From a virus (lineage: Duplodnaviria > Caudoviricetes): a stretch of DNA of 25,929 bases. The stretch lies in IMG/VR virus record IMGVR_UViG_3300002091_000107, positions 1-25,929 of that record, one strand, 5' to 3'. Shown here one piece after another: positions 50 through 24,033 of the stretch. Every line of letters starts with the position of its first letter. The stretch's first letter is position 1. A program made the translations under genes and the position numbers. Under the pieces are notes generated by a model, which did not search any database, was not told the DNA's origin, and saw only the letters and a list, made by a program, of their open reading frames with translations.

Positions 50-78
50 AGTATAACAGAACTTAATATAAAAGTCAA
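50..78 (-). promoter_or_regulatory. sigma70-type leftward promoter with extended -10
   Basis: Minus strand reads TTGACT (78-73), 17 bp, TATACT (55-50), with TGn directly before the -10; it fires into the AT-only tract at 1-50. Confidence 0.65.
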
Positions 79-113
79 GTAGTTTCTTCACTGTTGTTCC
101 AGAAACTTAATAA

Positions 114-185
114 CTATTTGTTTAATATATACATAGTTACTTCAAAACCAAATCTCATCTCAGTTGCTGATGGGGTTGTCCACAT
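114..185 (-). CDS. pqqA: Pyrroloquinoline quinone precursor peptide PqqA (23 aa)
   Basis: Hand translation MWTTPSATEMRFGFEVTMYILNK*. It has the PqqA pattern W-x-x-P...R-x-G-F-E-V-T-M-Y with the ExxxY pair. AGGAGA RBS at 196-191, 5 nt before ATG; TAG stop at 116-114. Confidence 0.95.
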   Translation of the reverse strand: MWTTPSATEMRFGFEVTMYILNK

Positions 186-289
186 AATAGTCTCCTAGGT
201 TAAGTTAATGTAAAGTTTTCACTCTACACTACTATTATACCCTAATGAATGAAAATAGTCTTCAGTAATATCATGAATCTATAGTAAGC

Positions 290-921: not shown

Positions 922-1215
922 ATGAAAAGCAAAGAGCAGGGAACTATGAGTTATTTAGATGACGCTTTAAAGAGTGATGAGTTATTTTATTCACTTGAAA
1001 GAATTGCCTCAGATGACGGGAAAGAAATCAAAGACTATACGCTTCTAGAAGTATTATCAGAAGCCCGTTATGTTTTATCCTGTTTTTATGAAGGCGGTCA
1101 TGTAAATAATGAATGGCTTAATTCAGATGATATTTATGAGAAAAGAGAGGCGATTAAAGAGGTTAAGACGCTTAAATCATTCATTAACAAATATGAGAAG
1201 GCTATTTCACTGTAA
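922..1215 (+). CDS. Early hypothetical protein
   Basis: 97-aa ORF with GGAGG RBS, first gene after the promoter. Confidence 0.75.
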   Translation: MKSKEQGTMSYLDDALKSDELFYSLERIASDDGKEIKDYTLLEVLSEARYVLSCFYEGGHVNNEWLNSDDIYEKREAIKEVKTLKSFINKYEKAISL

Positions 1216-1248
1216 GCGGACATTCTATAAATATTTATTAAAAAGGGG

Positions 1249-1276
1249 TTGACAAAATGAAATTATCGTATATTCT
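1249..1276 (+). promoter_or_regulatory. sigma70-type early promoter
   Basis: TTGACA (1249-1254), 16 bp, TATTCT (1271-1276), intergenic. Confidence 0.65.
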
Positions 1277-1350
1277 ATGGTTTATAGTAAGTGCAATAAA
1301 TTTTTATATGTTTTTAATTTTATGTTTATCATTCTAAAAAGGGGCTTAAA

Positions 1351-1596
1351 ATGTTATTAAAAAAGATCGGTAATAATATGAATGAAATTTTATTAAATAA
1401 TGGTGATCAAGTATTAATCAGTTATGAAACGCCAGTGGCGTGTATAAAAGAGGGTGAATTATATTATACTAATAAAAAATGGTCTCAAACGACTACAAAG
1501 CATATTAATAAGTGGTTTAAATTAAAAGGGTGGATTCTATCAAACCCAATTCATGAAGATCAAAGCTTTTTTAATAACTTAATCAAAGGGGTTTAA
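1351..1596 (+). CDS. Early hypothetical phage protein
   Basis: 81 aa; SYETPVA...WSQTTTKHINKW motif seen in small early phage proteins; AAGGGG RBS. Confidence 0.8.
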   Translation: MLLKKIGNNMNEILLNNGDQVLISYETPVACIKEGELYYTNKKWSQTTTKHINKWFKLKGWILSNPIHEDQSFFNNLIKGV

Positions 1597-1598
1597 TC

Positions 1599-2117
1599 AT
1601 GATAAATACTAATATTAATTTTATGGGTTTTTATAACTCAATTCATTCTGATAATGTTGATCACGCTATTGAATGCTATTTTAGTGATGAGGACGGGAAT
1701 TTTAATTATGATGATGTTGAAGATCAAATTGAATATGATGTCATTCATAACAATTACATGGAGTTTTTTTGTAATAAGTTTGAAGAGTGGGTCAAAAATA
1801 AGTACCCTTTGACGCCGTCTTTTTGTAATTTAAAGCTAATAAGCCCTAAATTTTACAATTATTCAACCGATGTTATTAATTGTGAAATGCAGGAATCCGA
1901 TGTTATATCTATGATTAACTTTTTTAAAGACGATCAAGAGTTTTTATCATTCTTAAAAGATAGAACCAAGTCTTACGATGGTTATATATCTTTTTACACT
2001 TTCGAGAGTGCATTATCAAACAAAGACGATATTCTATCGGATTATATTTTAGAATTTTTAGTTCGAAAATTCGAGTTTGACGGCTTTGAATTGGATAATT
2101 ATGAATTCATGAACTAA
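1599..2117 (+). CDS. Acidic early hypothetical protein
   Basis: 172 aa, D/E-rich; FxGFYxS, SPKFYNYSTD and SYDGYISFY motifs. Confidence 0.8.
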   Translation: MINTNINFMGFYNSIHSDNVDHAIECYFSDEDGNFNYDDVEDQIEYDVIHNNYMEFFCNKFEEWVKNKYPLTPSFCNLKLISPKFYNYSTDVINCEMQESDVISMINFFKDDQEFLSFLKDRTKSYDGYISFYTFESALSNKDDILSDYILEFLVRKFEFDGFELDNYEFMN

Positions 2118-2118
2118 C

Positions 2119-2168
2119 TAGTTTAATCTTAAAAAGCCTTGTTATAGGGCTTTTTAGGGCTTAAATTA
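2119..2168 (+). terminator. Long RNA hairpin (terminator and/or RNase III-type site)
   Basis: Core AAAAAGCC...GGCTTTTT extends to a ~23-bp stem through several G-U pairs that form only on the + strand. Confidence 0.55.
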
Positions 2169-2197
2169 AGTCATATTTTAATTTTATTGGGGGTTAT

Positions 2198-2518
2198 ATG
2201 TATCAATCTATTAATGAATATCAATTTAGAGACGCTTTTCGATCAATGGGGCGTGGTGATCAATTCACCTATGAGGGTTTAAATATCCTCTTTAATTGGT
2301 TAGAACAATATGAGGTGGATACTGGCGAAAGGGTGGAACTTGATGTTATCTCTTTATGTTGCGACTTTTCAGAGGATAGTGAAGACATAATTAGGGGGTC
2401 TTATGCTGACATGATGGACGAGGGCGAAGACATAGAGGACTTTTTAAATGATAACTCTTTGGTTATAGGTTCGCATGAAATGGACGGCGTGAAGTATTTT
2501 ATTTACCAGCAATTTTAA
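2198..2518 (+). CDS. Highly acidic early protein
   Basis: 106 aa, about 25 D/E versus 6 K/R by hand count; GGGG RBS. Confidence 0.8.
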   Translation: MYQSINEYQFRDAFRSMGRGDQFTYEGLNILFNWLEQYEVDTGERVELDVISLCCDFSEDSEDIIRGSYADMMDEGEDIEDFLNDNSLVIGSHEMDGVKYFIYQQF

Positions 2519-2525
2519 GGGGGTA

Positions 2526-2633
2526 ATGATGGACTTAAACGAGGGCTTTAGCACGAAGTATTTATTATTTAAAGCAACATATCAAAGCATGCTATATAAA
2601 CTTATTAAACAAAAAGAGAGGGCTATAAAATGA
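2526..2633 (+). CDS. Small hypothetical protein (35 aa)
   Basis: MMDLNEGFSTKYLLFKATYQSMLYKLIKQKERAIK; AAGGGGG RBS; ATGA overlap with the next ORF. Confidence 0.5.
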   Translation: MMDLNEGFSTKYLLFKATYQSMLYKLIKQKERAIK

Positions 2634-2800
2634 ACACTTATACAATAGAAAATGAAACGTGTATGGAATGCGACAAAAAGGGCGAAATGGTTTATAACGA
2701 CTCTATAACAGCTATACATTGTCAAGCGTGTGGTACATGGTTTGATACTAACGGGGATATAATGCTAGATTCTGAAATCACTGAGGAAATATTAAAATGA
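2630..2800 (+). CDS. Small zinc-ribbon protein (56 aa)
   Basis: MNTYTIENETCMEC...HCQACGTWFD... with two CxxC pairs; GAGG RBS; ATGA coupling. Confidence 0.65.
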   Translation: MNTYTIENETCMECDKKGEMVYNDSITAIHCQACGTWFDTNGDIMLDSEITEEILK

Positions 2801-2976
2801 TTGAAATATTATATAAAAATTACCTTATAAATAATAGCTATAGTTTTTCAGGTAAAACAATGTATTACAATGTATGGAAACTGGACGAAGAGGGAAGCCC
2901 CTTTGATGTTTGGGGAGATTCTTTTAGATCTATTAAGCAAGCTAAAAACTTTATAAACATGGAGGTTACAAAATGA
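2797..2976 (+). CDS. Small hypothetical protein (59 aa)
   Basis: MIEILYKNYLIN...FRSIKQAKNFINMEVTK; GAGG RBS; ATGA coupling at both ends. Confidence 0.65.
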   Translation: MIEILYKNYLINNSYSFSGKTMYYNVWKLDEEGSPFDVWGDSFRSIKQAKNFINMEVTK

Positions 2977-3191
2977 AAACTTTATATCATATCGAATCAG
3001 AAGTAGAAATAGACTTATCGCTTTTAGATGATGACGACATTATCGAGGAAGCTAACGAAAGGCAGTTATGCGTTTATGATGATGAGATGATGGCTATCTT
3101 TGAAAGTATATACCACGCAAAGGCTAATAATCAATGCTATGCTGAACTAGTTAATAAACTTATCGACAAAACTTTAGGGAGGATTTTATAA
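2973..3191 (+). CDS. Hypothetical protein (paralog of 3760-3966)
   Basis: 72 aa; GGAGG RBS; VEIDL...NKL..TLG pattern. Confidence 0.8.
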   Translation: MKTLYHIESEVEIDLSLLDDDDIIEEANERQLCVYDDEMMAIFESIYHAKANNQCYAELVNKLIDKTLGRIL

Positions 3192-3448
3192 TGTTAGCAA
3201 TTCAAAGTATTGAGGATTTAAAAAATCATTGTGATGAGGAACCTTATAACGAATTTTATTTAAAATTAAATGGGGGTTGTAGGTCAACGAAAACCATTCA
3301 ATATTTTAAAGATAACGATTATTGGTATATTTTAAATCATATTGATGACAGCGTTTCAGAGTATGAATCAACGCAGGACTTTAAGCAAAATGAACGCTTA
3401 ATTTTCGAGGCTATGACTAAAAACGCATTCTTTAAAGATGGGGATTAA
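3191..3448 (+). CDS. Hypothetical protein
   Basis: 85 aa; GGAGG RBS; TAATG coupling. Confidence 0.75.
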   Translation: MLAIQSIEDLKNHCDEEPYNEFYLKLNGGCRSTKTIQYFKDNDYWYILNHIDDSVSEYESTQDFKQNERLIFEAMTKNAFFKDGD

Positions 3449-3450
3449 AA

Positions 3451-3630
3451 ATGAAATCATTCAAAGCAAGGATTTACTATAATGGTTATTATGATATGAA
3501 CATAGACGCACCCACGGAAGCACACGCACGAGACATTATCGAAGATATTGCACTTGATTATTCAGAAGATGTAAAGCTTTCTTATGATTTTGCAGATATT
3601 GACGAGATAGAGGTGTATAAACATGCTTGA
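3451..3630 (+). CDS. Small acidic hypothetical protein (59 aa)
   Basis: MKSFKARIYYNGYYDMNIDAPTEAHARDIIED...; GGGG RBS; fills the gap between ORFs. Confidence 0.65.
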   Translation: MKSFKARIYYNGYYDMNIDAPTEAHARDIIEDIALDYSEDVKLSYDFADIDEIEVYKHA

Positions 3631-3763
3631 TAATGATGAACTAGACGACAGCACAGAATACTGTATTTATTGTTATGAAAAGAAGTATAGAAGCGGGTGC
3701 TGTGGTGAGAATCATTTCATGACAGGTAAACAAATAAAAGAAAATGAAAAGGATAAACAATGA
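3623..3763 (+). CDS. Small Cys-rich protein (46 aa)
   Basis: MLDNDELDDSTEYCIYCYEKKYRSGCCGENHF...; GAGGTG RBS; CxxC...CCxxxH. Confidence 0.65.
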   Translation: MLDNDELDDSTEYCIYCYEKKYRSGCCGENHFMTGKQIKENEKDKQ

Positions 3764-3966
3764 AAACACGAGTTGAAATTGATCTAAAGACCATAAATCT
3801 ATGGACGCTATTTGATGAACTAGAGGAAAGAAAAATCTATGTCACTAATGAAAACAATTTTAAAATAATTGAGCTTATGTATTCTATAAAATATGAAGAT
3901 AACAACGCAAACATAGATAAACTTTTAAATAAACTTTTTAAATCTACTTTAGGGGTTAGTTTATGA
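3760..3966 (+). CDS. Hypothetical protein (paralog of 2973-3191)
   Basis: 68 aa; AAGGA RBS; ATGA coupling. Confidence 0.75.
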   Translation: MKTRVEIDLKTINLWTLFDELEERKIYVTNENNFKIIELMYSIKYEDNNANIDKLLNKLFKSTLGVSL

Positions 3967-4364
3967 TATTAGATGTTGAACACGCAAACGCAGACCTAAA
4001 TTGTATGGCTATGGCATTGTACGCAGAGGGTCATACAGCTAGTGATAAATCTAAAGAGAAAATTGCACAAGTGATATTAAATAGATTTAGAGAAGGTCAT
4101 TTTGGAACTAATATTTGTGAGATTGTTTACAGTAATAAAAACGGATCATGGCAGTTTAATGGTGTAGAGGATATAGTAAAAGGTAATCACGAATTTCCAA
4201 CGCTTGAAGACATGCTTAAAAGTAAACTTATAGCTCACAGGGTTTATTTTCACAAGATAGCTCCACCCCTCCCCTCGCACGTGTTATATTTTCATGATAC
4301 AAGCATTAAAAATCCATTCAAACGAAAGCCCTATTGTAAGACTGACAATCTTATTTTCTATTAA
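3963..4364 (+). CDS. SleB/CwlJ-like cell wall hydrolase (Hydrolase_2 family)
   Basis: LNCMAMALYAEG (catalytic Glu), IAQVILNR, ICEIVY...QF, LYFH and terminal IFY motifs. Confidence 0.8.
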   Translation: MILDVEHANADLNCMAMALYAEGHTASDKSKEKIAQVILNRFREGHFGTNICEIVYSNKNGSWQFNGVEDIVKGNHEFPTLEDMLKSKLIAHRVYFHKIAPPLPSHVLYFHDTSIKNPFKRKPYCKTDNLIFY

Positions 4365-4381
4365 AATCAAGGAGTTATACT

Positions 4382-4480
4382 ATGGTTGCACTTATTATTG
4401 TTTTTGTGATAGGCTTTGGAATCGGTTATGTATTAGGAAACCGAGATTATAAAAAAGAAACTTATTTTGGAGATTATTAA
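4382..4480 (+). CDS. Single-pass membrane peptide (32 aa)
   Basis: MVALIIVFVIGFGIGYVLGNRDYKKETYFGDY; AAGGAG RBS. Confidence 0.65.
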   Translation: MVALIIVFVIGFGIGYVLGNRDYKKETYFGDY

Positions 4481-4582
4481 ATGAATAGTTTTAAAAAGTA
4501 TCACATGGAAATATGTTTTTGGATTATGGCAGTATGTAGTATCACAGACACATTAACTAACATTGTAAAAGGATTATCATGA
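4481..4582 (+). CDS. Small hydrophobic peptide (33 aa)
   Basis: MNSFKKYHMEICFWIMAVCSITDTLTNIVKGLS; GGAG RBS; ATGA coupling to the next ORF. Confidence 0.55.
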   Translation: MNSFKKYHMEICFWIMAVCSITDTLTNIVKGLS

Positions 4583-4806
4583 ACTTATTTGAAGAACAAG
4601 CTAAAAAAGATATTGAAGAATATAAAACTAAACAAACTTATGTTGTATACGCAGAAGAAATTACAAAGAAGTCAGTTGTAGTTGAAGCGTCTAATATTAC
4701 AGATGCTTATTTAAAAGCTATTAAAACACCTAAAGGATTATTTAGAGAAGAAGGCTATAAATCTTTTCATGTATTAGCTAGTGATATTAAAAGAATTGTG
4801 GTATAA
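4579..4806 (+). CDS. Hypothetical protein
   Basis: 75 aa; AAGGA RBS. Confidence 0.7.
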   Translation: MNLFEEQAKKDIEEYKTKQTYVVYAEEITKKSVVVEASNITDAYLKAIKTPKGLFREEGYKSFHVLASDIKRIVV

Positions 4807-4807
4807 T
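4796..4807 (+). promoter_or_regulatory. Extended -10 promoter for middle genes
   Basis: TTGTGGTATAAT; the same 12-mer occurs in the promoter at 11122-11133. Confidence 0.5.
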
Positions 4808-4844
4808 GTTATTGGAGGATTAACTTTTTAATAGAAAGAAACTT

Positions 4845-5066
4845 ATGAGATGTATTGCATGTAATGCTCTTTTATCTGATTATGAGGCTACACGGAAATC
4901 AGAATTAACGGGTGAATATGTAGATTTATGCAATCATTGTTATGTCGCAGTAAAAAGTGACATAGTAACAATTGAAAGAGAAGATTTAGCAACACCTGAA
5001 AACATGGAAGAAGATTGGGAAGACATTGAAGACATAAAAGATTGGAGTATAAATGAAAACACCTGA
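4845..5066 (+). CDS. Zinc-finger hypothetical protein
   Basis: MRCIAC...DLCNHC with an acidic tail. Confidence 0.8.
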   Translation: MRCIACNALLSDYEATRKSELTGEYVDLCNHCYVAVKSDIVTIEREDLATPENMEEDWEDIEDIKDWSINENT

Positions 5067-5283
5067 TGCTTGGATGTATGAAGAGTGGGACAGTAATGGA
5101 AAGTTAAGAGCTAGTCATGTATATACCTTTTTACCTAGTGATTTAAAACAATCAATGAAGTTAAAAGATGTTCACCATGCAGAACTTACCCCTATGTATA
5201 AAGAAGAGAAGTTTAAGCAAGTGTTTAATAAAGATAATAAGTTTGACAGTAAAAAACTAACAGAGGCATTTTGTGGACTTTAG
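5053..5283 (+). CDS. Hypothetical protein
   Basis: 76 aa; GGAG RBS; overlapping chain of ORFs. Confidence 0.7.
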   Translation: MKTPDAWMYEEWDSNGKLRASHVYTFLPSDLKQSMKLKDVHHAELTPMYKEEKFKQVFNKDNKFDSKKLTEAFCGL

Positions 5284-5455
5284 TCATGCAATCATAGATG
5301 ACAATGGTGACATTATACGAAAGTATAGATGGAGTGCTAAAGAAGCTAAATGGCATAAAGATCAAGGTAAAACTGTCATTAAGTTAGAAGTAAAAGTAGT
5401 TAAGATAAATCAGTATCAACAAGCATTGGAGTTTGTCGGTGAGTCACTTTATTAA
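5273..5455 (+). CDS. Hypothetical protein
   Basis: 60 aa; GTG start with GAGG RBS. Confidence 0.65.
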   Translation: MDFSHAIIDDNGDIIRKYRWSAKEAKWHKDQGKTVIKLEVKVVKINQYQQALEFVGESLY

Positions 5456-6140
5456 ACATGAGAGATGTCCTAAATGCAGTCGCATGGGTAATGACAGGTC
5501 AGGTAATAACTTAGCTGTATATTCTGATAGTCATAAACACTGTTTTGCGTGTGGGTATTATGTTCGAGGTGATATTGTTGAAGCTTATAAACAAAAACAG
5601 GAGGTAAAAAAAGATGCTATATCTTATTTTGTTCGTAGTAATCATTTTAATCCTAAGGGATTAATTTATTTAAAGAAATATGGTCTTACAGATAAAGAAA
5701 TACATGATAATTACTTTTGGTGTGATGATGGATTTTTAGTTTTTAATGGTGGTAAGTACCAAAACGCTAGGAATTTCAATGCAGTAGGTGTGAAATATAT
5801 ATCAAGAGGGTTGATTCGTGGTAATGAAAAGATATTTTTGCAGAATATGCAAAAAGATAATGTAGTTGTTGCAGAAGATGCAATTTCAGCAATAAAGATA
5901 GCTAGGACATGTAATAGTGTTCCTATACATAACTCTATAATACCCCTAGAACTCATTTTAAGGCTATCTAAGCAGTTTAAAAACCTTTTTATATGGCTAG
6001 ATAGGGATAAAGCAAAAGAATCGTTTAAAGAGGCTAAGAAAGCGGAAATTTACTTTGATAAGGTAAATATCATATGGTCTGAGAAAGACCCTAAAGAGTA
6101 TAGTGATATTGAGATTAAAAATTATTTAGAAAAGGATTGA
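5439..6140 (+). CDS. DNA primase (Zn finger + TOPRIM), standalone
   Basis: CPKC...HCFAC Zn finger; TOPRIM VAEDAISAIK and WLDRD; KDPK. Likely GTG start at 5439 (GGAG at 5428-5431) rather than TTG at 5433. Confidence 0.88.
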   Translation: MSHFIKHERCPKCSRMGNDRSGNNLAVYSDSHKHCFACGYYVRGDIVEAYKQKQEVKKDAISYFVRSNHFNPKGLIYLKKYGLTDKEIHDNYFWCDDGFLVFNGGKYQNARNFNAVGVKYISRGLIRGNEKIFLQNMQKDNVVVAEDAISAIKIARTCNSVPIHNSIIPLELILRLSKQFKNLFIWLDRDKAKESFKEAKKAEIYFDKVNIIWSEKDPKEYSDIEIKNYLEKD

Positions 6141-6165
6141 CATTTATTATGATTGAAACTATAAT
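6137..6165 (+). promoter_or_regulatory. Perfect-consensus sigma70 promoter overlapping the helicase start
   Basis: TTGACA (6137-6142), 17 bp, TATAAT (6160-6165). Confidence 0.7.
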
Positions 6166-7366
6166 ATTAAATTATATATTAAATAATAATATATATAATA
6201 GATATATTAATAATATTATAATAACTAACAAGGAACTTGTCAAGTTATTTTATTGTATTAAAGCATTACATGAACAAGAGTCTAAAGATTACACAGTAGA
6301 TGATCTTGAGTTAAAGTTTTATGGTGACTACCCATATCTTAAAGATGTTGAGAAAGAAGCTTATACAGCTATCTTTGAGAAGCTTCGTAAGGTGGATACA
6401 GACCCAGCTCGTATTGAGGAGTATCTTGGAAAGCTAAGGGAAGCATCCTTTGCTCAACAGATTGCTCACTTGTCTCTAGAAGTTACAGAGGGTCGTAAAG
6501 ACTTTCAAGACATCTTAGACCATGTGTCTAAAGTGGATATTAATAAACCAATGTCTGAGGAGTTTGAGTTTGTCTCTACTCGGCTGTCACAGATTTATCA
6601 GAACCAAGTTAAGACCAAGGGTCTTCGTTGGAGAATGAAGTGTCTTAACCTATCGTTAGGTTCTCTTCGTAAGGGTGACTTTGGATTTGTCTTTGCAAGA
6701 CCTGAGACTGGTAAAACTACATTCTTGGCTAGTGAAGTGATGTATATGCTAGAGCAAGCAGAACGGCCTGTTCTTTGGATTAACAATGAGGAACAGGGTG
6801 GTAAGGTAATGCTACGATGTATGCAAGCATTCTTTGGCTTTGGTACACCTCAGTTGATTTCTGATATCGAGGGTAATGGTAAGAGGTTTTATCAATACAC
6901 AGATAACAAGTTTAAGCTATTCGATCAAGCTATCATCCACAAGAATGAGATTGAAAGATTGTGTGAGTCCATTAAGCCTAGCCTCATTATCATTGATCAG
7001 ATTGATAAGATCAGAGGGTTTGAGCAAGACCGTAATGACTTGATGTTAGGTAGTCTATACCAGTGGGCTCGTGAGTTGGCTAAAGAATATGCTCCTATCA
7101 TTGCAGTGTGTCAAGCAGGGGGTGAGGGTGAAGGTGTTCGTTGGTTAGACATGGGTCATGTGGCTAATGCTAAGACATCTAAACAAGCAGAGGCCGACTG
7201 GATTCTTGGTATCGGTAAATCAAACGATGAAGGCATGGAATATATCCGCTATTTAAACATCAGTAAGAATAAGTTGGTCGGTGATGAAGATACTCTTCCT
7301 GATAGACGACATGGAAGAATGGAAGTTTTAATTCGTCCTGACATTGCTAGATATGAGGACATTTAA
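6149..7366 (+). CDS. DnaB-like (SF4) replicative helicase
   Basis: Walker A ARPETGKTT, NNEE, Walker B IIIDQID, QAEAD and ISKNK. ATG at 6149 preferred over TTG at 6137. Confidence 0.92.
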   Translation: MIETIILNYILNNNIYNRYINNIIITNKELVKLFYCIKALHEQESKDYTVDDLELKFYGDYPYLKDVEKEAYTAIFEKLRKVDTDPARIEEYLGKLREASFAQQIAHLSLEVTEGRKDFQDILDHVSKVDINKPMSEEFEFVSTRLSQIYQNQVKTKGLRWRMKCLNLSLGSLRKGDFGFVFARPETGKTTFLASEVMYMLEQAERPVLWINNEEQGGKVMLRCMQAFFGFGTPQLISDIEGNGKRFYQYTDNKFKLFDQAIIHKNEIERLCESIKPSLIIIDQIDKIRGFEQDRNDLMLGSLYQWARELAKEYAPIIAVCQAGGEGEGVRWLDMGHVANAKTSKQAEADWILGIGKSNDEGMEYIRYLNISKNKLVGDEDTLPDRRHGRMEVLIRPDIARYEDI

Positions 7367-7896
7367 TGAAACATTTTAAAAAAGTAGGTGAATTTAATCC
7401 TGAATTAATTAAAAAAGAACTTGAAGCTACTCCATTATGGAACTGGCTTAATTTAAGGAGAATGGCTTACCAATCACAACACAATTATGTTGATGATATT
7501 GTTTTAAGATTTCAACCTGTTCAAGGTAAGTTTATTATGTCTGACTTTATGGATAGTGAAGAAATGGCCGATTACTTTGTTCAGAACTATTTACCCTATA
7601 CTATGAATTTTATTAACACATTGACAAATGGAAAGAAAATTGGTAGAATAGTAATAGCTAAATTAAAAGCAGGTGGTATAATTAATGATCATATTGATGA
7701 AGGTGATTATCATAAAAATTATTTGAGATATCATTTAGTAATTGACACAAACGATAAAGTAATATTTACTTGTGAAGATGAAAAACAATTTATGCCTCAA
7801 GGCACAATATGGTGGTTTAATAACCGAGTGACTCATAATGTCTATAATGATGGTGATACAGATAGAACTCACATTGTGGTGGACATTAGAAAATGA
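7366..7896 (+). CDS. 2OG-Fe(II) dioxygenase, Asp/Asn beta-hydroxylase-like
   Basis: HID...H triad: GGIINDHIDEG, RYHL, WWFNNRVTHNVYN, and R-x-H-I-V-V-D. Confidence 0.85.
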   Translation: MKHFKKVGEFNPELIKKELEATPLWNWLNLRRMAYQSQHNYVDDIVLRFQPVQGKFIMSDFMDSEEMADYFVQNYLPYTMNFINTLTNGKKIGRIVIAKLKAGGIINDHIDEGDYHKNYLRYHLVIDTNDKVIFTCEDEKQFMPQGTIWWFNNRVTHNVYNDGDTDRTHIVVDIRK

Positions 7897-9056
7897 ACGA
7901 ACTTATATTAGATGTAGAAACAACGATTAGTAGTAAAGGCAATCCATTTGATGAGAGGAATAAACTTTGTTATGTTGGACTCTATAATAATACTATTTGT
8001 GACTTGGTTGATATTGATTACAGTGGAACTCCTTACCGAGAACGACTTGCCTCTATACAAGGACGGATTGATAGCCACTCTATTCTTGTTGGCTTTAACA
8101 TTAAATTTGATTTGCACTGGATAAGAAACTATGGAATCAATTTTATGGATAAGCGTATTTGGGACTGTCAGTTGGTACATTTCATACTTACGAACCAACA
8201 ACATCCCTATCCAAGTCTTAATAGTGTCGCTGAGTACTATGGTTTGGGTAGTAAGCTTGATGTTGTGTCTACTGAGTATTGGAGCAACAATATTGACACC
8301 CCTGACGTACCTAAAGACATTCTTGAGCAGTATTTAAAACAAGACTTAGAACTTACTTATCAAGTGTATTTGAAGCAGAAAGAAGAAGTAGATAAACTTC
8401 CTGAAGCTAGACAAAGATTAATCAGTTTACACAATCAGGACTTATTAATATTAGAGGAGATGGAATATAATGGATTACTCTTTGATGAAAGCAAGAGCTT
8501 GGAGCTTGCAGAAGAATTGGATAAGAAAATTAAAGGTATTGACTTTGAACTCGCTAAAGCTTGTTCTATTGACGGCTTTAATTTTAATAGTAAAGATCAT
8601 CTTAGCACTTTACTATATGGTGGACGCTTGGTTATACCTAAAAAAGAAATCATTGGCAATTATAAAACGGGTGAAAGAAAAGGGCAAGAAAAAGAAGGAT
8701 GGGTGGACTATACCCATGACCTTCCTAGATTAATAGAACCATTAAAAGGGAGTGAATTAAAAAAAGATGGATACTTTAGCACAGACGAACAAACTCTCAG
8801 AAGTCTCAAAGGTACAAAGGAGAGTAAAGAAATTATTAAGCTCATACTTGAAAGGAATGTCTTGGAAAAGCGTAAAGGAACTTACTATATCGGACTCCCA
8901 GAGTTACGAGCTACTCAAGGTTGGATTCAAGGCAGATTATACGGTCAACTCAATCAATGTGTCGTTAGAACAGGTCGTTTATCTTCCTCGAAGCCGAATT
9001 TACAAAACTTCGACTCGGAAATAAAAGAGTTATTCTATAGTAGATATGGAGGATAA
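7893..9056 (+). CDS. polA: Family A DNA polymerase, N-terminal part (3'-5' exonuclease + thumb)
   Basis: ExoI LDVET, ExoII GFNIKFD, ExoIII YLKQD, then ME.NG, FNFNS and TGRLSSSKPNLQN; stops just before motif A. Confidence 0.92.
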   Translation: MNELILDVETTISSKGNPFDERNKLCYVGLYNNTICDLVDIDYSGTPYRERLASIQGRIDSHSILVGFNIKFDLHWIRNYGINFMDKRIWDCQLVHFILTNQQHPYPSLNSVAEYYGLGSKLDVVSTEYWSNNIDTPDVPKDILEQYLKQDLELTYQVYLKQKEEVDKLPEARQRLISLHNQDLLILEEMEYNGLLFDESKSLELAEELDKKIKGIDFELAKACSIDGFNFNSKDHLSTLLYGGRLVIPKKEIIGNYKTGERKGQEKEGWVDYTHDLPRLIEPLKGSELKKDGYFSTDEQTLRSLKGTKESKEIIKLILERNVLEKRKGTYYIGLPELRATQGWIQGRLYGQLNQCVVRTGRLSSSKPNLQNFDSEIKELFYSRYGG

Positions 9057-9058
9057 TT

Positions 9059-9580
9059 ATGAGTAGCAGTAGTGGTAGACTAAATGGTTTAAAAGTAGTT
9101 AGAGAACATCAATCAGATTCTTATGAACATATTGAAGAAGTAATTAAAAGAGAAGCTTTAAAAGTAGAAGAAGCACAGCAAGGTTGGTTAGTACAAGCTA
9201 AGAATAAAAGCTTTTATTGGATAACACCTTATAAATTATGGAAACCAAAAGGACAAAGAGGTAAAAATTGGTATCATTATAAAACAATAGAAGATTTATT
9301 TGAAAGATATTTGAATGTTGATAGAGATGCTAGATTTAAAAAGGAGACTAATATGAAAGTAGTAAAGCCAGCAATTAAGAAACGAGATGGAACAATTGTA
9401 AAAGCAAAGAACAAAGACCAAAGCCACGCTGATATTGGTGTATCTGGTCAACATGGATTTATATTGTCAGATGGAACATTTGCTGATAGAGAGAAAGCTG
9501 CTGATGTAGCAAGAGAAGCAGGACAAGTAACAAGTGTTAAGAAACTTCATAGCCATCATTTAAGAAAGGGAAAGAAATGA
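9059..9580 (+). CDS. Hypothetical protein between polymerase halves; internal in-frame start at 9353
   Basis: GGAGG RBS before 9059; second RBS AAGGAG at 9341-9346 before the in-frame ATG at 9353; C-terminal HGFILSDGTFADREKA...AGQ motif. Confidence 0.7.
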   Translation: MSSSSGRLNGLKVVREHQSDSYEHIEEVIKREALKVEEAQQGWLVQAKNKSFYWITPYKLWKPKGQRGKNWYHYKTIEDLFERYLNVDRDARFKKETNMKVVKPAIKKRDGTIVKAKNKDQSHADIGVSGQHGFILSDGTFADREKAADVAREAGQVTSVKKLHSHHLRKGKK

Positions 9581-9780
9581 GTGACGATTTAACAACAGAA
9601 GAATATTATGCAGAAGAACAGCAAGCACAAGAAGAAGCTTATTACTTTCACACTATTAAAGAGTTTGAAGCAATTACTAAAGCCTTTGGTGCTAATCATG
9701 TTGTTCAAGATTTAGATAAAGAAACACTTGTACGACTTAAGACAGAGTTAAATAAGTTTAAGTTTACAGGTGAAGCTTAA
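9577..9780 (+). CDS. Hypothetical protein between polymerase halves
   Basis: 67 aa; ATGA overlap upstream and TAATG coupling to the polymerase C-terminal gene. Confidence 0.7.
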   Translation: MSDDLTTEEYYAEEQQAQEEAYYFHTIKEFEAITKAFGANHVVQDLDKETLVRLKTELNKFKFTGEA

Positions 9781-10496
9781 TGCTTATTCAGGGGGATGCT
9801 TCAGCTTTAGAGTGGCGATGTGCTGCTTTTTTGAGTCAAGACCCAGTAGCATTAGAGGAGATAAAGAACAATGTCGACCAACACACTGATAATCAAGATC
9901 GTTTTGGTTTGCCTAGCCGTCTTATTGCTAAGACATTTGTTTTCCGTCTTATTTATGGAGGATCAGCTTACTCCTACGCTAATGATGCTAACTTTGCTGA
10001 TGTAAGTAAGTCAGAGAAATTCTGGCAGAAAGTTATAGATGAATTTTACACAAAGTATAAAGGATTACATAAGTGGCATACTAAACTTATGCAAGAAGCA
10101 ACAACGACAGGAATGGTCAAGTTACCCACGGGGAGAGTCTATCAATATAAGTCCGAGGATAGACGAGGCGAGAAAGTGTGGCCTCGTACCACAATTCTCA
10201 ACTACCCAGTACAAGGATTAGGGGCTGACTTGATGTCAATAGCTAGAGTATCTTTACATAACCGAATGAGGAAACTTAACTATGAAAATGCGAAACTTGT
10301 CAATACGGTTCATGATAGTATTATCATTGATTGTGATGATAGTCATACTGATATTTTAGCTAAAATGATGTTAGATGTGTTTGAGGATGTACCTAGCAAC
10401 TTTAAGAAATTGTTTGGTACTGAGTTTAATTTACCTATGAAGGCAGAAGTACAGGTAGGTAAAAACTGGAAAAATATGGAGGTGTGGAATGGCTAG
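9780..10496 (+). CDS. polA: Family A DNA polymerase, C-terminal catalytic part (palm/fingers)
   Basis: Motif A GDASALEWR, motif B RLIAKTFVFRLIYGG (Phe at the 762-equivalent), NYPVQG and motif C VHDS. Confidence 0.93.
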   Translation: MLIQGDASALEWRCAAFLSQDPVALEEIKNNVDQHTDNQDRFGLPSRLIAKTFVFRLIYGGSAYSYANDANFADVSKSEKFWQKVIDEFYTKYKGLHKWHTKLMQEATTTGMVKLPTGRVYQYKSEDRRGEKVWPRTTILNYPVQGLGADLMSIARVSLHNRMRKLNYENAKLVNTVHDSIIIDCDDSHTDILAKMMLDVFEDVPSNFKKLFGTEFNLPMKAEVQVGKNWKNMEVWNG

Positions 10497-10695
10497 AAAA
10501 GTAACATTAGATGTGATTAGTATTAAAGATAATAAAGATGGTTCTTGTGATGTTAGGATAGATGCTAATGATGAAGGTAAAAGACTTCTCATGGAAGCAG
10601 GATTTATAAAAATATTAACAGACTTTATGGATAAAGAAAAAAATAAGTTATCATGGTGGGAACGATTTAAACTAGCTTGGAGGACAGCAAAATAA
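10489..10695 (+). CDS. Hypothetical protein
   Basis: 68 aa; GGAGGTG RBS. Confidence 0.7.
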   Translation: MARKVTLDVISIKDNKDGSCDVRIDANDEGKRLLMEAGFIKILTDFMDKEKNKLSWWERFKLAWRTAK

Positions 10696-10970
10696 TGGCT
10701 AAATATAAATTAAAAATGCAAGAAGGTGACTTTGTAAATACATTAGAATTTGAAGCTGATGGATTAGAAGATGTAGTAGCTAATATGGAAATCTTTTTAA
10801 AAGGGAATGGTTTTTTCTTTGATGGTATATTAGATGTACATACAGGAACACCAGAAACAAATGCTATGCACGGAACTATGGTTAAAATGCAATATAGAGA
10901 AAGAGATTTTGATGACATCATCACCGATAGCGATCAATTAGATATGGAAATCAAAGATGATCCTATTTAG
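10695..10970 (+). CDS. Acidic hypothetical protein
   Basis: Likely ATG at 10695 (TAATG coupling, GGAGG upstream); FEAD.LEDV...FLKG.GF pattern. Confidence 0.7.
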   Translation: MAKYKLKMQEGDFVNTLEFEADGLEDVVANMEIFLKGNGFFFDGILDVHTGTPETNAMHGTMVKMQYRERDFDDIITDSDQLDMEIKDDPI

Positions 10971-11109
10971 CCCTTATAGAATTAATGGAAAGCTCTTATT
11001 AAAACGCTTTCGCAAGGTGCGTGGTTCAGATAAGCGTAAAAGAATAGATCAAGAAATAAGAAAGTTAAGAAAAATGTGGTGGCATTTTAAAACAAGATGG
11101 GATAGTTGA
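10957..11109 (+). CDS. Small basic protein (50 aa)
   Basis: MILFSPYRINGKLLLKRFRKVRGSDKRKRIDQEIRKLRKMWWHFKTRWDS; fills the gap before the promoter. Confidence 0.5.
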   Translation: MILFSPYRINGKLLLKRFRKVRGSDKRKRIDQEIRKLRKMWWHFKTRWDS

Positions 11110-11133
11110 CATTTTGTGTATTTGTGGTATAAT
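11106..11133 (+). promoter_or_regulatory. sigma70-type promoter with extended -10
   Basis: TTGACA (11106-11111), 16 bp, TGgTATAAT (-10 at 11128-11133); AAGGAG RBS before 11163. Confidence 0.8.
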
Positions 11134-11162
11134 ATTATAGTAACAATAGAAAAGGAGAAAGT

Positions 11163-11654
11163 ATGTTAATTACATTAGTAGATGTTTCAACCCCGCAGGT
11201 CACTAAGACTGCTAAGGGTCAATATCAAGCAATTGAGGTAAGTTATAAAAACGAGCAAGGTCAGATTCAAGGTAAGAAACTTATGTCTTTTAGTAACCCT
11301 ACAGTCTTTAAGGCTATTCAGGAGTTTGCTAAAGGGGATGTTCTTAGCGTTGAAGCTAGTAAAGATGATCAAGGCTATTGGCAATGGAAGTCTGTACAAA
11401 AGTCTGATGGTACAGAACCTGTTAAAACTTCAGCACCTGCAGCATCTGGTGGTCGAGTTACAGGAAGTAATTATGAAACACCTGAAGAAAGAGCTAAACG
11501 ACAAGTTTATATTGTTCGTCAAAGTTCAATCTCAAGTGCTATTGACTTACTTAAATCCAATGGTAATGATGTAAAAGTAGAGAATGTACTATCAGTCGCT
11601 AAGCAATTAGAAGCTTTTGTGTTTGGTAACGAATCTTCTGATACACCTAGCTAA
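11163..11654 (+). CDS. Putative single-stranded DNA-binding protein
   Basis: Beta-rich OB-like N-terminus with GYWQW, flexible linker, own strong promoter and RBS, located before the 5'-3' exonuclease. Function inferred mainly from context. Confidence 0.5.
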   Translation: MLITLVDVSTPQVTKTAKGQYQAIEVSYKNEQGQIQGKKLMSFSNPTVFKAIQEFAKGDVLSVEASKDDQGYWQWKSVQKSDGTEPVKTSAPAASGGRVTGSNYETPEERAKRQVYIVRQSSISSAIDLLKSNGNDVKVENVLSVAKQLEAFVFGNESSDTPS

Positions 11655-12334
11655 TGACAACGGCACTTTTAGATGGTGATATATTTGCATTTAGAGTAGC
11701 TTGTACTACAGAGAATGATGCTGATGGTATTGCCATCTATCGTGTTAATGAAATGATTGAACAGTGTTTGGCTGAGGTGGATGCAGATGAGTATAAAATA
11801 TTCTTAACCTCCAAAGATAATTTCCGTAAAAAGATTTATCCTGAATATAAAGCTAATCGTAAAACTCCACCCCCTAAACATTTAATATTTTTAAAGGATT
11901 ATTTAATCAATGATTGGAATGCTATTGAAGCACATGGAATGGAAGCTGATGACTATTTGGCTATACATCAGAATGACGATACTGTCATTTGCTCTATCGA
12001 CAAGGATCTATTACAAGTTGCTGGTAAACACTATAACTTTGTCAAGAAACAAGCAAGTGAAGTGGAAGAATTTGAAGGGCTAAAAAGATTTTATTTACAA
12101 CTTTTAACAGGTGATAATTCAGATAACATCAAAGGTATTGAAGGAATTGGACCTGTTAAGGGAAGTAAAGCTCTTATGTTTTGTGAGACAGAAAAAGAAA
12201 TGTTTGATGTGGTTCGTGGTATGTACAACAATGATGACTGGTTATTAATGAATGGCCGTTGTCTATGGATATTAAGAAGTCTAGATGATGACTGGACTAA
12301 ACACTATGAAAGGTTACTAAATGAGCAAAGGTAA
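11654..12334 (+). CDS. 5'-3' exonuclease (T7 gp6/flap endonuclease family)
   Basis: LLDGD, YKANR, EADD, SIDKD and GDNSDNIKGIEGIG motifs. Confidence 0.92.
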   Translation: MTTALLDGDIFAFRVACTTENDADGIAIYRVNEMIEQCLAEVDADEYKIFLTSKDNFRKKIYPEYKANRKTPPPKHLIFLKDYLINDWNAIEAHGMEADDYLAIHQNDDTVICSIDKDLLQVAGKHYNFVKKQASEVEEFEGLKRFYLQLLTGDNSDNIKGIEGIGPVKGSKALMFCETEKEMFDVVRGMYNNDDWLLMNGRCLWILRSLDDDWTKHYERLLNEQR

Positions 12335-12524
12335 TTCACCAGCATTCCCATGTCAAGATAATAAGAAGCAAATCTGGACAGGTATGAACCTTAGGGACTA
12401 CTTTGCATTGGAAGCTATGAGTGCCATTATAGAGTCTGCTGCTATGGTTAAATTAGATGAAGTTCCTAAAAAAGCTTACAAATTAGCTGATATGATGCTT
12501 GAAGAACGTGAGAACTACAAGTAA
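12321..12524 (+). CDS. Conserved phage hypothetical protein
   Basis: PAFP...GMNLRDYFA...AYKLADMML motif. Confidence 0.8.
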   Translation: MSKGNSPAFPCQDNKKQIWTGMNLRDYFALEAMSAIIESAAMVKLDEVPKKAYKLADMMLEERENYK

Positions 12525-12907
12525 TGGATTGGACTGAAGGAAGACGAAAATCATTTATAACAAGTGTATTAAGAAGTGGTTATCGAAGATGGCCTCCCAA
12601 ATATGAAACCCTTAAACAAGCACAGTCAGGAAAGAAAGAGAATGCAAAGACTAAACGAATTGCAATGCACTACACATGCAATTCCTGTAAAGAAGACTAC
12701 CCTGCTAAAGAAGTTCAAGTTGATCATATTGAACCTGTTGTCGATTCTAAGGGGTTTAGTACTTGGGATCTATTTATTGAGAGGTTGTATTGTGAAAAAG
12801 AAAACCTCCAAGTCTTATGTAAATCGTGCCATTCAGAGAAAACATTAATAGAAAAGAAAGAGAGAACAGGTGCAAGTAAAAAGCCTAAAGCAAGTAGAAA
12901 ACGATAA
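12524..12907 (+). CDS. HNH endonuclease
   Basis: CNSC...VDHIEP...NLQVLCKSCH. Confidence 0.88.
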   Translation: MDWTEGRRKSFITSVLRSGYRRWPPKYETLKQAQSGKKENAKTKRIAMHYTCNSCKEDYPAKEVQVDHIEPVVDSKGFSTWDLFIERLYCEKENLQVLCKSCHSEKTLIEKKERTGASKKPKASRKR

Positions 12908-13067
12908 GTTTGATCTTATCTTAGAAGTTAATGAAGAAGAGGCTAATTTCTTTACACAAATAGCTCTAGACTACCTTGTAAACACTATAAGAATTATTAG
13001 AGAGAATAAAGACGCTGACAGAGATATACTTAGTCAAATACCTGATGAGGAGTTTATTAGGGCATGA
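12870..13067 (+). CDS. Hypothetical protein
   Basis: 65 aa, GTG start, ATGA coupling to the next ORF. Confidence 0.6.
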   Translation: MQVKSLKQVENDKFDLILEVNEEEANFFTQIALDYLVNTIRIIRENKDADRDILSQIPDEEFIRA

Positions 13068-13303
13068 GTAGGAATGAAATAACTGGAGATCGACTTATAA
13101 ACAAAACCCTTACTAAAGAAGGCGAAGAGAATTGGGATATGATATTTGGTAAGAAGGTAGAGAGTCCTTGTATTAGTGTTTGTAAATTAATTAATGAGGT
13201 ATGTAAAGGTTGTAAAAGAACTACCGAAGAAGTAACAGAATGGTATAATTATAGTAATAAACAAAAACAACAAGTACTAGATAGAATTAAGGAGTTAAAA
13301 TGA
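13064..13303 (+). CDS. DUF1289-domain protein (4-Cys, putative Fe-S/Zn)
   Basis: ESPCISVCKL..VCKGCKRTTEEVTEW after a short N-terminal peptide; GAGGAG RBS. Confidence 0.75.
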   Translation: MSRNEITGDRLINKTLTKEGEENWDMIFGKKVESPCISVCKLINEVCKGCKRTTEEVTEWYNYSNKQKQQVLDRIKELK

Positions 13304-14046
13304 GTAAAATATTATTATTAGATATTGAAATGGCTCCGAATGTAGCACATGTATGGGGTATTTGGGATCAGAACATTGGTATCAATCAACTAAGAGAAAG
13401 TTCTTATGTCATGTGTTTTGCTGCAAAATGGCTAGGTGATAAAAAGATGATGTTTGACTCTGTTAAAAAGAGTGGTGACAAGAAAATGTTAGCTGGCATA
13501 CATAAGCTTCTTGACGAAGCGGATGCGGTCATCCACTATAATGGGAAGCGGTTTGATATACCATCACTTAATAAAGAGTTTTTATTGCATGGTATGTTTC
13601 CTCCAGCACCTTTTAAAGAGATTGACTTATTGACAGTTGCTAAAGGTAGATTTAGATTTGTATCTAATAAACTAGACTATGTAGCACAGTCATTAGGTTT
13701 AGGTAAGAAAACAGAGCACAGTGGTCATGAGTTATGGGTACAATGTATGGCAGGTGTTCCAAAAGCATGGAAGCTTATGGAGGAGTATAATAAGAATGAC
13801 GTAATCCTTTTAGAAGCCGTGTATGAACGCTTTAAGCCATGGATTAAGAATCATCTTAATCACAATATTATTGATGGTACTACTGAATGTTGTCCTACAT
13901 GTAAGTCTTCTAACATACAAAAAAGAGGCTTTAACATTACAACAACAAGTAAGTATCAAAGATATCAATGTAGAGCCTGTGGTAATTGGTTTAGAGATGG
14001 TACAAATCTTAAACCTAAAGGGTCGCAAAAGCTTGTCAATATTTAG
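13300..14046 (+). CDS. DEDD/RNase H-like 3'-5' exonuclease with C-terminal Zn ribbon
   Basis: LLDIE, YNGKRFD and YNKND motifs; CPTC...YQCRAC. Confidence 0.85.
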   Translation: MSKILLLDIEMAPNVAHVWGIWDQNIGINQLRESSYVMCFAAKWLGDKKMMFDSVKKSGDKKMLAGIHKLLDEADAVIHYNGKRFDIPSLNKEFLLHGMFPPAPFKEIDLLTVAKGRFRFVSNKLDYVAQSLGLGKKTEHSGHELWVQCMAGVPKAWKLMEEYNKNDVILLEAVYERFKPWIKNHLNHNIIDGTTECCPTCKSSNIQKRGFNITTTSKYQRYQCRACGNWFRDGTNLKPKGSQKLVNI

Positions 14047-14054
14047 GAGACTTT

Positions 14055-14300
14055 ATGAAAGATCATGATATACCTGTGTGGGATTTAGTAAGAGCTGATA
14101 TTGACTTTAGAGATAGAGTTGGTACCAAAACTTATAAAAGACCTTTAACACCTTTTAATGGTAAAGATGCTTTATGGGAAGCCTATGAAGAAGCTTTAGA
14201 TTTAGTAGTCTATTTAAGACAATTTATATATGAACAAGATATTAATAAAGGTTATAGTCCTGAACCTAATAAAAATAAAACTGAAAGCGTAGGAAATTAA
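14055..14300 (+). CDS. Hypothetical protein, possibly all-alpha NTP-pyrophosphatase-like
   Basis: G..TY...L...NG.DAL.EAYEEALDL.VYL; AGGAG RBS. Confidence 0.6.
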   Translation: MKDHDIPVWDLVRADIDFRDRVGTKTYKRPLTPFNGKDALWEAYEEALDLVVYLRQFIYEQDINKGYSPEPNKNKTESVGN

Positions 14301-14301
14301 G

Positions 14302-14484
14302 ATGTTGACTTTAGAAGAGCTTAAACAAAAGCTTGCCGAACGACTAGATGAAATTACTCTTCTAGAGTTGCTAAGTATTAATTCCTATGATATAGTGGAA
14401 AGGTTTGAAGACTTTATTGAAAACAATTACGATAGACTAATGAAAGAAATTGAAGATGAATACGACATTAACGAATTACAGTAA
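14302..14484 (+). CDS. Conserved acidic phage hypothetical protein
   Basis: LDEITLLELLSINSYDIVERFED; AGGA RBS. Confidence 0.75.
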   Translation: MLTLEELKQKLAERLDEITLLELLSINSYDIVERFEDFIENNYDRLMKEIEDEYDINELQ

Positions 14485-17068: not shown

Positions 17069-17712
17069 TAAGTTGCCTGTGTTTGTGCTGTTAAGATACC
17101 ATTAGTAAATGTCATACTACCCTGTGTCCCTAAAGCAGTTAAAGCAGCTGTAGTAATAGTAGCTGTAATACCTGTATTCTGAGTAGCCATAGTACCTAAC
17201 CCTAGGTTAGTTCTAGCAGTAGAAGCACTAGCTAAGTCTGATAAATTATTTGTACGATAAGCATAAGTTGTATCTGTACCCGTTGTAGAATATGAAGTAG
17301 TATTCTGTGCTGCCATGGTTCCTAATGTAGGAGTACCTGTTAATACTGAATAAGGTATTGTAGTAGAGGCAGTCATAACACTTGAACCATTACCATAAAC
17401 ATAGCCTGTTAAGGTAGTAGCCCCAGTACCTCCATTAGGTACAGTAAAAGGTACTGAAGGGAAACTAGATACAGTTGCATATTGAACAGCACTTAAATGA
17501 TAATATTGATTAGATATACCACCTTGAATGTCTTGTAAAGCATTATGTTGACGAGTTACAATATCTCGAAGATTAGAACCAGTAAAATCAATGCTGGACC
17601 AAGCAATAGATGCTTGCTGAACAAGTAACTGAGAAACTTTAAAAAACCAATCTCGCCAGACGAAAACATCGGTGATAGGGTTATTAGGTATTGGAGGTAA
17701 TTGAACAGCCAT
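17068..17712 (-). CDS. Tail fibre/needle-like structural protein
   Basis: Thr/Gly/Ser-rich; NGGTGATT, NNLSDLASASTARTNLGLG, repeated LGTMAxQN and terminal FTNGILT. Confidence 0.65.
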   Translation of the reverse strand: MAVQLPPIPNNPITDVFVWRDWFFKVSQLLVQQASIAWSSIDFTGSNLRDIVTRQHNALQDIQGGISNQYYHLSAVQYATVSSFPSVPFTVPNGGTGATTLTGYVYGNGSSVMTASTTIPYSVLTGTPTLGTMAAQNTTSYSTTGTDTTYAYRTNNLSDLASASTARTNLGLGTMATQNTGITATITTAALTALGTQGSMTFTNGILTAQTQAT

Positions 17713-23577: not shown

Positions 23578-24033
23578 TTAATCCTTTATGATTTTTCCTA
23601 CGATTATATCTTCATCAACATACCCCATATGATGGAGTATTCTGGTGAAATCTTTATTAAATTTAACATGCCAAAGAATCTTTGACACTCCTAAAGCTTT
23701 TAAGAACTGCTCAGAATATTGAATGAGCCTTGGACCAATCATCCCTTTACGGTAATCAGGATGTAAATATAAAAGGTCATTATTAGCATAAAAAGTAGAC
23801 TTATAATGAAGATGGTTTGTAACAAAGAATATAGAATATCCTATAAGTTTACCATCATCTCTAGCAGTAATGAGATATGCAAGTTTATTAGCAATAAGAG
23901 TTTTATACCTATCCCAATCAGGATCTAATGGTATAATATCTTTATTTAATGCTATTTCTTCATAATGAAGACTTATTAAACCTTCTATTTCACTTCTAGC
24001 TTGGTCAAATCCTTCTACACCAAACTCAATCAT
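23578..24033 (-). CDS. GNAT family acetyltransferase-like protein
   Basis: DGKLIGY, acetyl-CoA motif LYLHPDYRKGMIG and MGY; AGGAG RBS. Confidence 0.82.
   Translation of the reverse strand: MIEFGVEGFDQARSEIEGLISLHYEEIALNKDIIPLDPDWDRYKTLIANKLAYLITARDDGKLIGYSIFFVTNHLHYKSTFYANNDLLYLHPDYRKGMIGPRLIQYSEQFLKALGVSKILWHVKFNKDFTRILHHMGYVDEDIIVGKIIKD

Follow-up and report, generated by a model that had tools for sequence, protein, structure and literature searches.

A reading frame of 23 codons on the minus strand, close to one end of a viral contig, raises two questions: whether a phage carries the gene for PqqA, the peptide precursor of PQQ, by itself, and what this gene would do during infection. The DNA analysed here (the window) is an entire virus record of 25,929 bp. 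A preliminary description had placed a small pqqA gene with an AGGAGA ribosome binding site (RBS) at 114..196 on the minus strand, and we found both the ORF (185..114) and the RBS (196..191) again. The operator and the promoter upstream of the gene were absent from that description and were found in this analysis.

The pqqA gene and its peptide

The features used in the following are listed by position in the window.

50..78, minus strand: separate sigma-70-like promoter, predicted from the sequence and the relatives, reading out of the contig toward the relatives' next late-strand gene
81..107, minus strand: weak hairpin following the stop codon that may be a terminator (z = −2.24; 5 of 200 shuffles as good)
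114..185, minus strand: pqqA coding sequence, 23 amino acids and stop, with Glu15 and Tyr19 as the PQQ-forming residues by family homology
191..196, minus strand: RBS AGGAGA, with a 5-nt spacer to the ATG, from the sequence
234..239, minus strand: perfect sigma-70 −10 hexamer TATAAT without a consensus −35; predicted start at about 227; kept in 6 of 6 close relatives
261..277, no strand: 17-bp palindromic operator of the host type (15.3 bits with a matrix built from host DNA only), in the position of the host's proximal site
922..16330, plus strand: early/replication arm of the MEP401 type (primase, helicase, split PolA, exonucleases, class II RNR), divergent from pqqA, by profile and homology matches

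The ORF (ATG at 185–183, TAG at 116–114) encodes the 23-residue peptide MWTTPSATEMRFGFEVTMYILNK. A PqqA profile match had been set as a check, and the peptide passed the cut-offs of both families, matching PF08042 over 19 of 19 model positions (E = 1.4e-10; 41.3 bits, cut-off 21.1) and TIGR02107 over 21 of 21 (E = 1.8e-10; 40.4 bits, cut-off 20). The Glu-x-x-x-Tyr motif is intact (E15-x-x-x-Y19); the equivalent residues of M. extorquens PqqA are given as Glu-16 and Tyr-20 in the accessible part of PMC10906245. The ORF at 185..114 is a genuine PqqA, far beyond chance. An RBS-like word (AGGA, GGAG, or GAGG) precedes 120 of 127 viral pqqA copies.

The search pattern fixed most of codons 1–19; therefore, selection was judged on the free part, codons 20–23. 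All 120 IMG/VR loci among the matches listed have a 23-codon ORF with a stop at codon 24. Codons 20–23 gave a pN/pS of 0.13 over 109 distinct sequences, whose pairs are phylogenetically non-independent, and the mean identity was 0.81 for the tail and stop versus 0.28–0.30 for the flanks. Purifying selection acts on the peptide and not on the DNA. A search of related phages for a conserved ORF with synonymous variation had also been set as a check; the gene is present in nine methylophage records and in 6 of 6 close relatives that reach the site. In scans of the whole collection, no copy had a codon starting with a base other than G at Glu15, and none had Ser, Phe, Leu, Cys, or Trp at Tyr19, the substitutions covered for that residue. 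The two most frequent viral peptides are also the two most frequent host peptides. The tail of the window peptide, Ile20-Leu21, was seen in no other copy of the 127 viral and in none of the 133 host ones, and the window gene is identical to host copies at 61 of 72 bases at best.

Phage context and distribution

The window is derived from a lytic podophage related to the OM43 phages MEP401 and MEP402, which the accessible text of PMC10580990 describes as a new subfamily of Zobellviridae with a split polymerase and latent periods of 17–20 h. It contains the MEP401-type replication module with the DNA polymerase split, the PolA halves being encoded by two genes at 7893–9056 and 9780–10496. The helicase of the rightward arm is a DnaB helicase, and the leftward arm encodes head closure, ejection, and tail proteins. 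MEP401 and MEP402 are the nearest cultured phages; they give the best cultured match to the C-terminal half of PolA (58–59%) and are among the best cultured matches to the helicase (47%). They share with the window the split PolA, the helicase, two divergent arms, and pqqA as the first gene of the late strand. However, their host is marine OM43, and pqqA of MEP401, unlike that of the window, runs straight into the next gene without an operator. Neither TerL nor a major capsid protein was identified within the window.

Several other genes were observed in the two arms. ORFs of 173 and 67 residues lie between the PolA halves (7893–10496), as in MEP401-like phages, and an oxygenase of the Asp/Asn beta-hydroxylase family is encoded at 7366–7896 between the helicase and the polymerase. 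The virion module includes a PurD-like ATP-grasp protein (below the cut-off) and a GNAT acetyltransferase (17712–19046 and 23578–24033, minus strand).

Because pqqA is located at the end of the contig, its phage origin needed support, and the preliminary description had itself named a misassembly, with host DNA at positions 1–250, as the observation that would overturn it. Bases 1–113 have no contig cover, and their sole support is therefore a similar TA-rich tract in relatives. However, the first 3 kb of the window are 96–100% present in four runs, all of them freshwater metagenomes of 2017, three of which may be sources of the window DNA. In run X2, a possible source of the window DNA, a single contig extends over 132–991 with zero differences, and in run X4, which is not flagged as a source, the contigs 132–293, 264–819, and 790–991 tile the same span with zero differences, joining pqqA to the first early gene. 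Relative G010 can be aligned over 112–321 at 76%.

The relatives, 29 selected by the helicase and one by the first early ORF, were searched as whole records for PF08042. Twelve are close (64–67% helicase identity), and all six that reach the pqqA site carry the gene, 5.6–6.3 kb upstream of the helicase on the opposite strand (5.95 kb in the window); the records of the other six end at most 5.2 kb from the helicase. In the close relatives, pqqA has the early genes on one side and a late-strand gene on the other, and it is equipped with a −10 box, an RBS, and a terminator-like hairpin of its own. Phage genes flank it on both sides in the relatives and on one side in the window, where the contig ends. 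Isolate genomes have pqqA as well. A misassembly is ruled out by the bridging contigs and by the synteny in 6 of 6 relatives, and we regard its probability as vanishingly small; pqqA is a host-derived metabolic gene inside bona fide phage DNA and a putative auxiliary metabolic gene. The PF08042 search found no pqqA in the 17 distant helicase relatives (32–54%, some of them complete) or in G001, the sole relative from the query with the first early ORF.

Some features of this end of the genome were noted in addition. In the close relatives L280 and L282, a divergent 24-codon pqqA occupies the same site as in the others, which suggests an exchange of the gene at its site with the position of the operator kept. 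A long TA-rich tract, a possible origin or unwinding element, follows the pqqA cassette at 1–60 of the window and at the same place in all six close relatives (L279–L284). Positions 132–990 form a non-coding control region with a GC-rich part and a 28-nt direct repeat (686, 734). In three runs the contig depth over this region, which is no measure of copy number, was about 1.7–2.3 times that of the next 2 kb, and it could reflect shared strains or a terminal repeat; record G009 as stored shows no repeat at its ends.

A tblastn search of 50,697 phage records gave 12 matching records: P19250A, Venkman, MEP301, MEP401, MEP402, four records of Melnitz, one unassigned spring phage, and two entries titled 'Acinetobacter phage MD-2021a'. 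One of the last two, contig L512 (CAKLQF020000010.1), was rejected as a true phage source, as it contains ppk and a full pqqBCDE set in a pqqABCDE operon and looks bacterial. All nine cultured-methylophage GenBank records returned carry pqqA, and it is annotated as pqqA in none of them. They range from P19250A to the myovirus Melnitz. The five small methylophages have no annotated feature beneath the match, and in one Melnitz record and the spring phage a hypothetical gene overlapping pqqA has been called on the wrong strand. No match was returned for MEP431–434, HIM624-A, phiMB624-A, Venkman EXVC038S, MG-MTP1, and RSA-MFP1, for which either the gene or the record is absent; the count refers to the records returned and not to all cultured methylophages.

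A codon-degenerate pattern found at least 120 loci in IMG/VR; the total is about 1,600 stretches, as estimated from 5 of 64 parts. A pattern for the 24-codon variant found 122 further stretches. Gene sharing divides 87 loci (80 with flanks and 7 references) into 19–24 groups, T4-like ones included. Thus, pqqA is common across unrelated methylophage lineages and is no rarity. In bacterial genomes (7 of 64 parts), the same pattern found 122 loci, of which 104 carry Methylophilaceae, Methylophilales, or one of their genera in the title, 16 have a name of higher rank only, and 2 are in one MAG titled Acidovorax. The likeness to Methylophilaceae PqqA noted in the preliminary description is therefore borne out. 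Its assignment to an OM43/Methylopumilus-type host stands for Methylophilaceae; however, a freshwater member is likelier than marine OM43 because the DNA was found in freshwater metagenomes. The phage likely infects methanol-using bacteria.

The gene had also been described as an orphan without pqqB–E, and PqqD was found in none of 50 long viral records among the matches listed. A PQQ dehydrogenase occurs in one of these 50. A 72-kb IMG/VR contig (G043; locus L029, 2103–13768) has pqqA amid genes for a 624-residue PQQ alcohol/methanol dehydrogenase, a 946-residue molybdopterin oxidoreductase, a quinoprotein-associated SoxYZ-like carrier, an RNA polymerase omega-like protein, and a CHASE2 cyclase. 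This contig may come from a jumbo phage that carries a complete C1-oxidation module, or it may be DNA of a host.

The operator, the promoter, and a possible host regulon

The hexamer TCATGA occurs in 60 of 124 host pqqA upstream regions (3.7 expected). A symmetric 17-bp matrix was built from host DNA only (consensus CTAATGA-www-TCATTAG; threshold >8 bits). It detects a palindrome in 115 of 123 unique host pqqA upstream regions and in 62 of 111 viral ones, compared with 2 of 351 other viral intergenic upstream regions and 0.5–1.6% of shuffles. In a held-out viral set fetched after the matrix was built, the count was 44 of 85 (shuffles, 1.2%), and among sequence-independent groups of viral upstream regions it was 23 of 41. 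The sites of P19250A, Venkman, MEP301, and Melnitz score 12–19 bits. Below the threshold are 49 of the 111 viral regions, MEP401 (−9.9 bits), and two of the six close relatives (about 6 bits).

The window operator (277..261) is located 21 nt before the TATAAT hexamer (239..234), which is the host spacing, and no distal site is present. In the hosts, the distance from the strong site to a −10-like hexamer downstream is exactly 44 nt in 64 of 115 cases, and a weak second site begins 6 nt past the first and ends 21 nt ahead of the −10. The orphan pqqA genes of Methylophilaceae thus resemble the window gene in the near-identical 23-residue peptide, the stand-alone arrangement, the palindrome, and the 21-nt spacing. 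They differ in having a strong distal and a weak proximal site with a degenerate −10, whereas the window gene is preceded by a single, strong proximal site and a perfect TATAAT. In the viral regions, the spacing from the operator to the −10 peaks at 21–22 nt, with a smaller group at 43–44 nt. A perfect TATAAT within −75 to −25 is found in 40 of 112 viral upstream regions versus 1 of 126 host regions. The operator centre near −42 and the lack of a −35 box suggest an activator site.

A second match in the window (16.5 bits, at 16388) is situated inside a 47-codon ORF and was rejected as a real site, which indicates that single matches can be chance. A loose form of the pattern gave 23 sites in host genome G031 versus 28 in the control, without genome-wide enrichment. 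Only the weighted matrix together with position separates real operator sites. Downstream of the gene, the hairpin at 81..107 was not called by a terminator scan; close relatives have a clear GC stem with a T-run at its place.

In three host genomes, further strong sites precede the pqqB operon without pqqA, a PqqU-like receptor, a quinoprotein-relay hydrolase, a PQQ-associated beta-propeller, and a UhpB/UhpA-like operon (for the receptor, hydrolase, beta-propeller, and pqqB: G035:C9:236987, G034:C1:1557752, G031:C1:76591, and G035:C10:54729). By profile, the hydrolase is above the cut-off, and the beta-propeller and the receptor (a partial sequence) are below it. Several other matches in the host genomes are within coding DNA or before unrelated genes. 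These sites suggest a PQQ-specific regulon; to our knowledge, no such regulon has been described in Methylophilaceae. None of 12 PQQ-dehydrogenase genes has the palindrome in the 450 nt before it, and the palindrome is therefore no general methanol-regulon site. No description of the palindrome was found in the literature covered, from which most subscription papers are missing.

In two of the three host genomes, a conserved UhpB/UhpA-like two-component operon has the palindrome about 85 nt ahead of it (G034:C1:733005 and G031:C1:~543850; L497 and L494), with 14.3 and 9.0 bits, one of the two being weak. With the fixed −10 spacing, these sites hint that a NarL/UhpA-type response regulator is possibly the reader of the operator. 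A canonical Fur box was rejected, as the window site has 9 mismatches to the 19-bp Fur consensus, and no more than 4 were counted in only 6 of 115 host sites. In the three hosts, the Fur-like sites form a distinct set that does not lie at pqqA. The Fur core, which the palindrome resembles, scores 15.9 bits in the operator matrix, and judged by this score cross-binding of Fur at the operator is possible.

A probable supply of PQQ precursor during infection

The window carries an intact pqqA in a stand-alone cassette made up of the palindrome, the −10 box, the RBS, and the 23 codons. We consider it probable that this cassette is under a host activator, adds precursor for the host PQQ enzymes, and thereby sustains PQQ-dependent methanol oxidation. 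A host reader, possibly of the NarL/UhpA type, would bind the palindrome at about −42 and activate the promoter for transcription by the host RNA polymerase. Host PqqD and PqqE, a protease, PqqB, and PqqC would then process the phage peptide, one peptide being spent per PQQ. As host expression falls and phage DNA replicates, the phage copies of pqqA could keep PQQ flowing to XoxF-type methanol dehydrogenase; a long infection such as that of the related MEP401 and MEP402 would be the setting for this supply. Energy and C1 supply might thus be sustained, giving a higher phage yield.

The accessible parts of PMC10906245 and PMC12997753 report that PqqA binds PqqD and that PqqE cross-links its Glu and Tyr. 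In a methanotroph, pqqA transcripts amounted to 11,857 versus 157–372 for pqqB–G, about 30–75 times as many (PMC3615186). Methylophilaceae hosts have 3–12 pqqA copies versus one pqqB–G set, according to the text available of PMC4109929, and even the streamlined genome of Ca. Methylopumilus universalis (1.27 Mb) has three. Of this pathway, the phage has copied nothing but the component that is consumed, and the hosts amplify the same component. Two points count against a need for precursor. PQQ is a recycled cofactor, and existing holo-enzyme may therefore last through infection. Overexpression of pqqABCDE in Methylovorus gave only a limited rise (as cited in the accessible part of PMC9851590), and PqqA supply may thus not be limiting.

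The peptide may be made into PQQ for a benefit other than methanol oxidation, as a redox protectant or for another quinoprotein during infection. Free PQQ is redox-active, the operator precedes none of the 12 xoxF/mxaF-type genes, and the hosts have additional PQQ-dehydrogenase paralogues. Yet many non-methylotrophs with many phages make PQQ, and among the 50,697 phage records the gene is confined to Methylophilaceae phages, the spring phage, and the mislabelled bacterial contigs; the large contig described above also combines pqqA with an alcohol/methanol-type dehydrogenase. We regard such a use as unlikely, although it has an appreciable chance. It is quite unlikely that pqqA is an expressed and conserved passenger of little consequence, cheap and often re-acquired, or that it serves for attachment or recombination at the pqqA of the host. 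The gene is only 72 bp, and 9 of 120 viral copies among the matches listed are identical to a host copy over 69 of 69 bases. However, synonymous positions vary freely against a conserved peptide, RBS, and operator, and a 20-mer common to viral and host upstream regions occurs in only 3 of 111 viral ones. An attachment site of a temperate phage was rejected: tyrosine integrase (PF00589, the only integrase type covered) is present in 0 of 50 long records among the at least 120 viral loci, 7 of these records being at least 90% complete, and the longest exact run shared by the window and any of 133 host loci is 20 bases.

A decoy would act in the opposite direction, the peptide tying up PqqD/E or the replicated operator titrating the host regulator, so that methanol oxidation and formaldehyde are damped. 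The window has a strong palindrome where the hosts have a weak one, and its peptide tail is unlike all host copies seen. Against these points, most viral peptides are identical to host substrates, with no exceptions at E15 and Y19 in the substitutions tested, and the operator is a single site at a fixed promoter spacing to the −10 rather than an array; we find this role very unlikely. A function in defence or counter-defence rather than cofactor supply seems highly improbable. A PqqA-annotated RiPP family is co-expressed with defence systems in Pseudomonadaceae (PMC11118758, accessible part), but this is a correlation in a different host family, and the operator is common to pqqA and the genes of PQQ synthesis and uptake.

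The presence of pqqA in viruses and the hypothesis that it boosts PQQ are already published (PMC7678222, with viral pqqA also in PMC13188868, both in their accessible parts), so the earlier report mentioned in the preliminary description does exist. The Lake Baikal virus VP_266, a predicted Methylophilaceae virus with PqqA, was proposed to boost PQQ and methanol oxidation (available text of PMC7678222). It resembles the window in this phage-borne gene and in the role proposed for it, but it is T4-like and has a methanol dehydrogenase, whereas the window is from a small podophage with pqqA alone. That account, in its accessible part, describes no functional test, promoter, or operator and states that P19250A is without such genes, whereas we found an unannotated pqqA in P19250A. 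Virus-encoded pqqA, pqqD, and pqqE in reservoir sediments also include pqqA as a viral auxiliary gene, but there the gene is assigned to phosphate solubilisation, and the available part does not connect it with phages of methylotrophs (PMC13188868). The accessible text of PMC10580990 and its two supplements do not mention pqq, and phage pqq was not found in the main text or the searched supplements (9 of 19 files for PMC8163748) of the isolation papers of Melnitz, MEP401/402, MEP301, and Venkman. The breadth of pqqA in cultured phages, P19250A included, and the host-type operator were not found in the literature covered.

We take cyanophage psbA and the pho-box-controlled pstS and phoA to be analogues of the pqqA cassette. 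They share the presence of a host gene across a lineage, the refilling of a consumed or limiting part at an entry point of energy, and the placement of an auxiliary gene under the site of a host regulator. They encode an enzyme subunit or a transporter, whereas the pqqA product is a RiPP-type substrate destroyed to give the cofactor. A wider proposal, tentative and a little short of probable, is that pqqA is a hallmark auxiliary gene of lytic Methylophilaceae phages, gained by many unrelated lineages and missed in annotation. Many of them would also have acquired an operator from a host PQQ regulon, itself undescribed, and moved it into an activating position before a consensus −10, so that the host signal of PQQ demand drives the phage supply of precursor. 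A routine refilling of the precursor by phages is directly testable because cultured pairs with an unannotated pqqA exist (P19250A, Venkman, MEP301, MEP401/402, and Melnitz).

For uncultured phages, the 23-codon gene offers a cheap marker of the host, and the palindrome can serve as a DNA bait for finding the regulator of the PQQ regulon. Methylophilaceae oxidise methanol and are abundant in lakes and on coasts. If replenishing the pool of PQQ precursor is routine for their phages, infection would alter C1 turnover by a route that gene callers miss.
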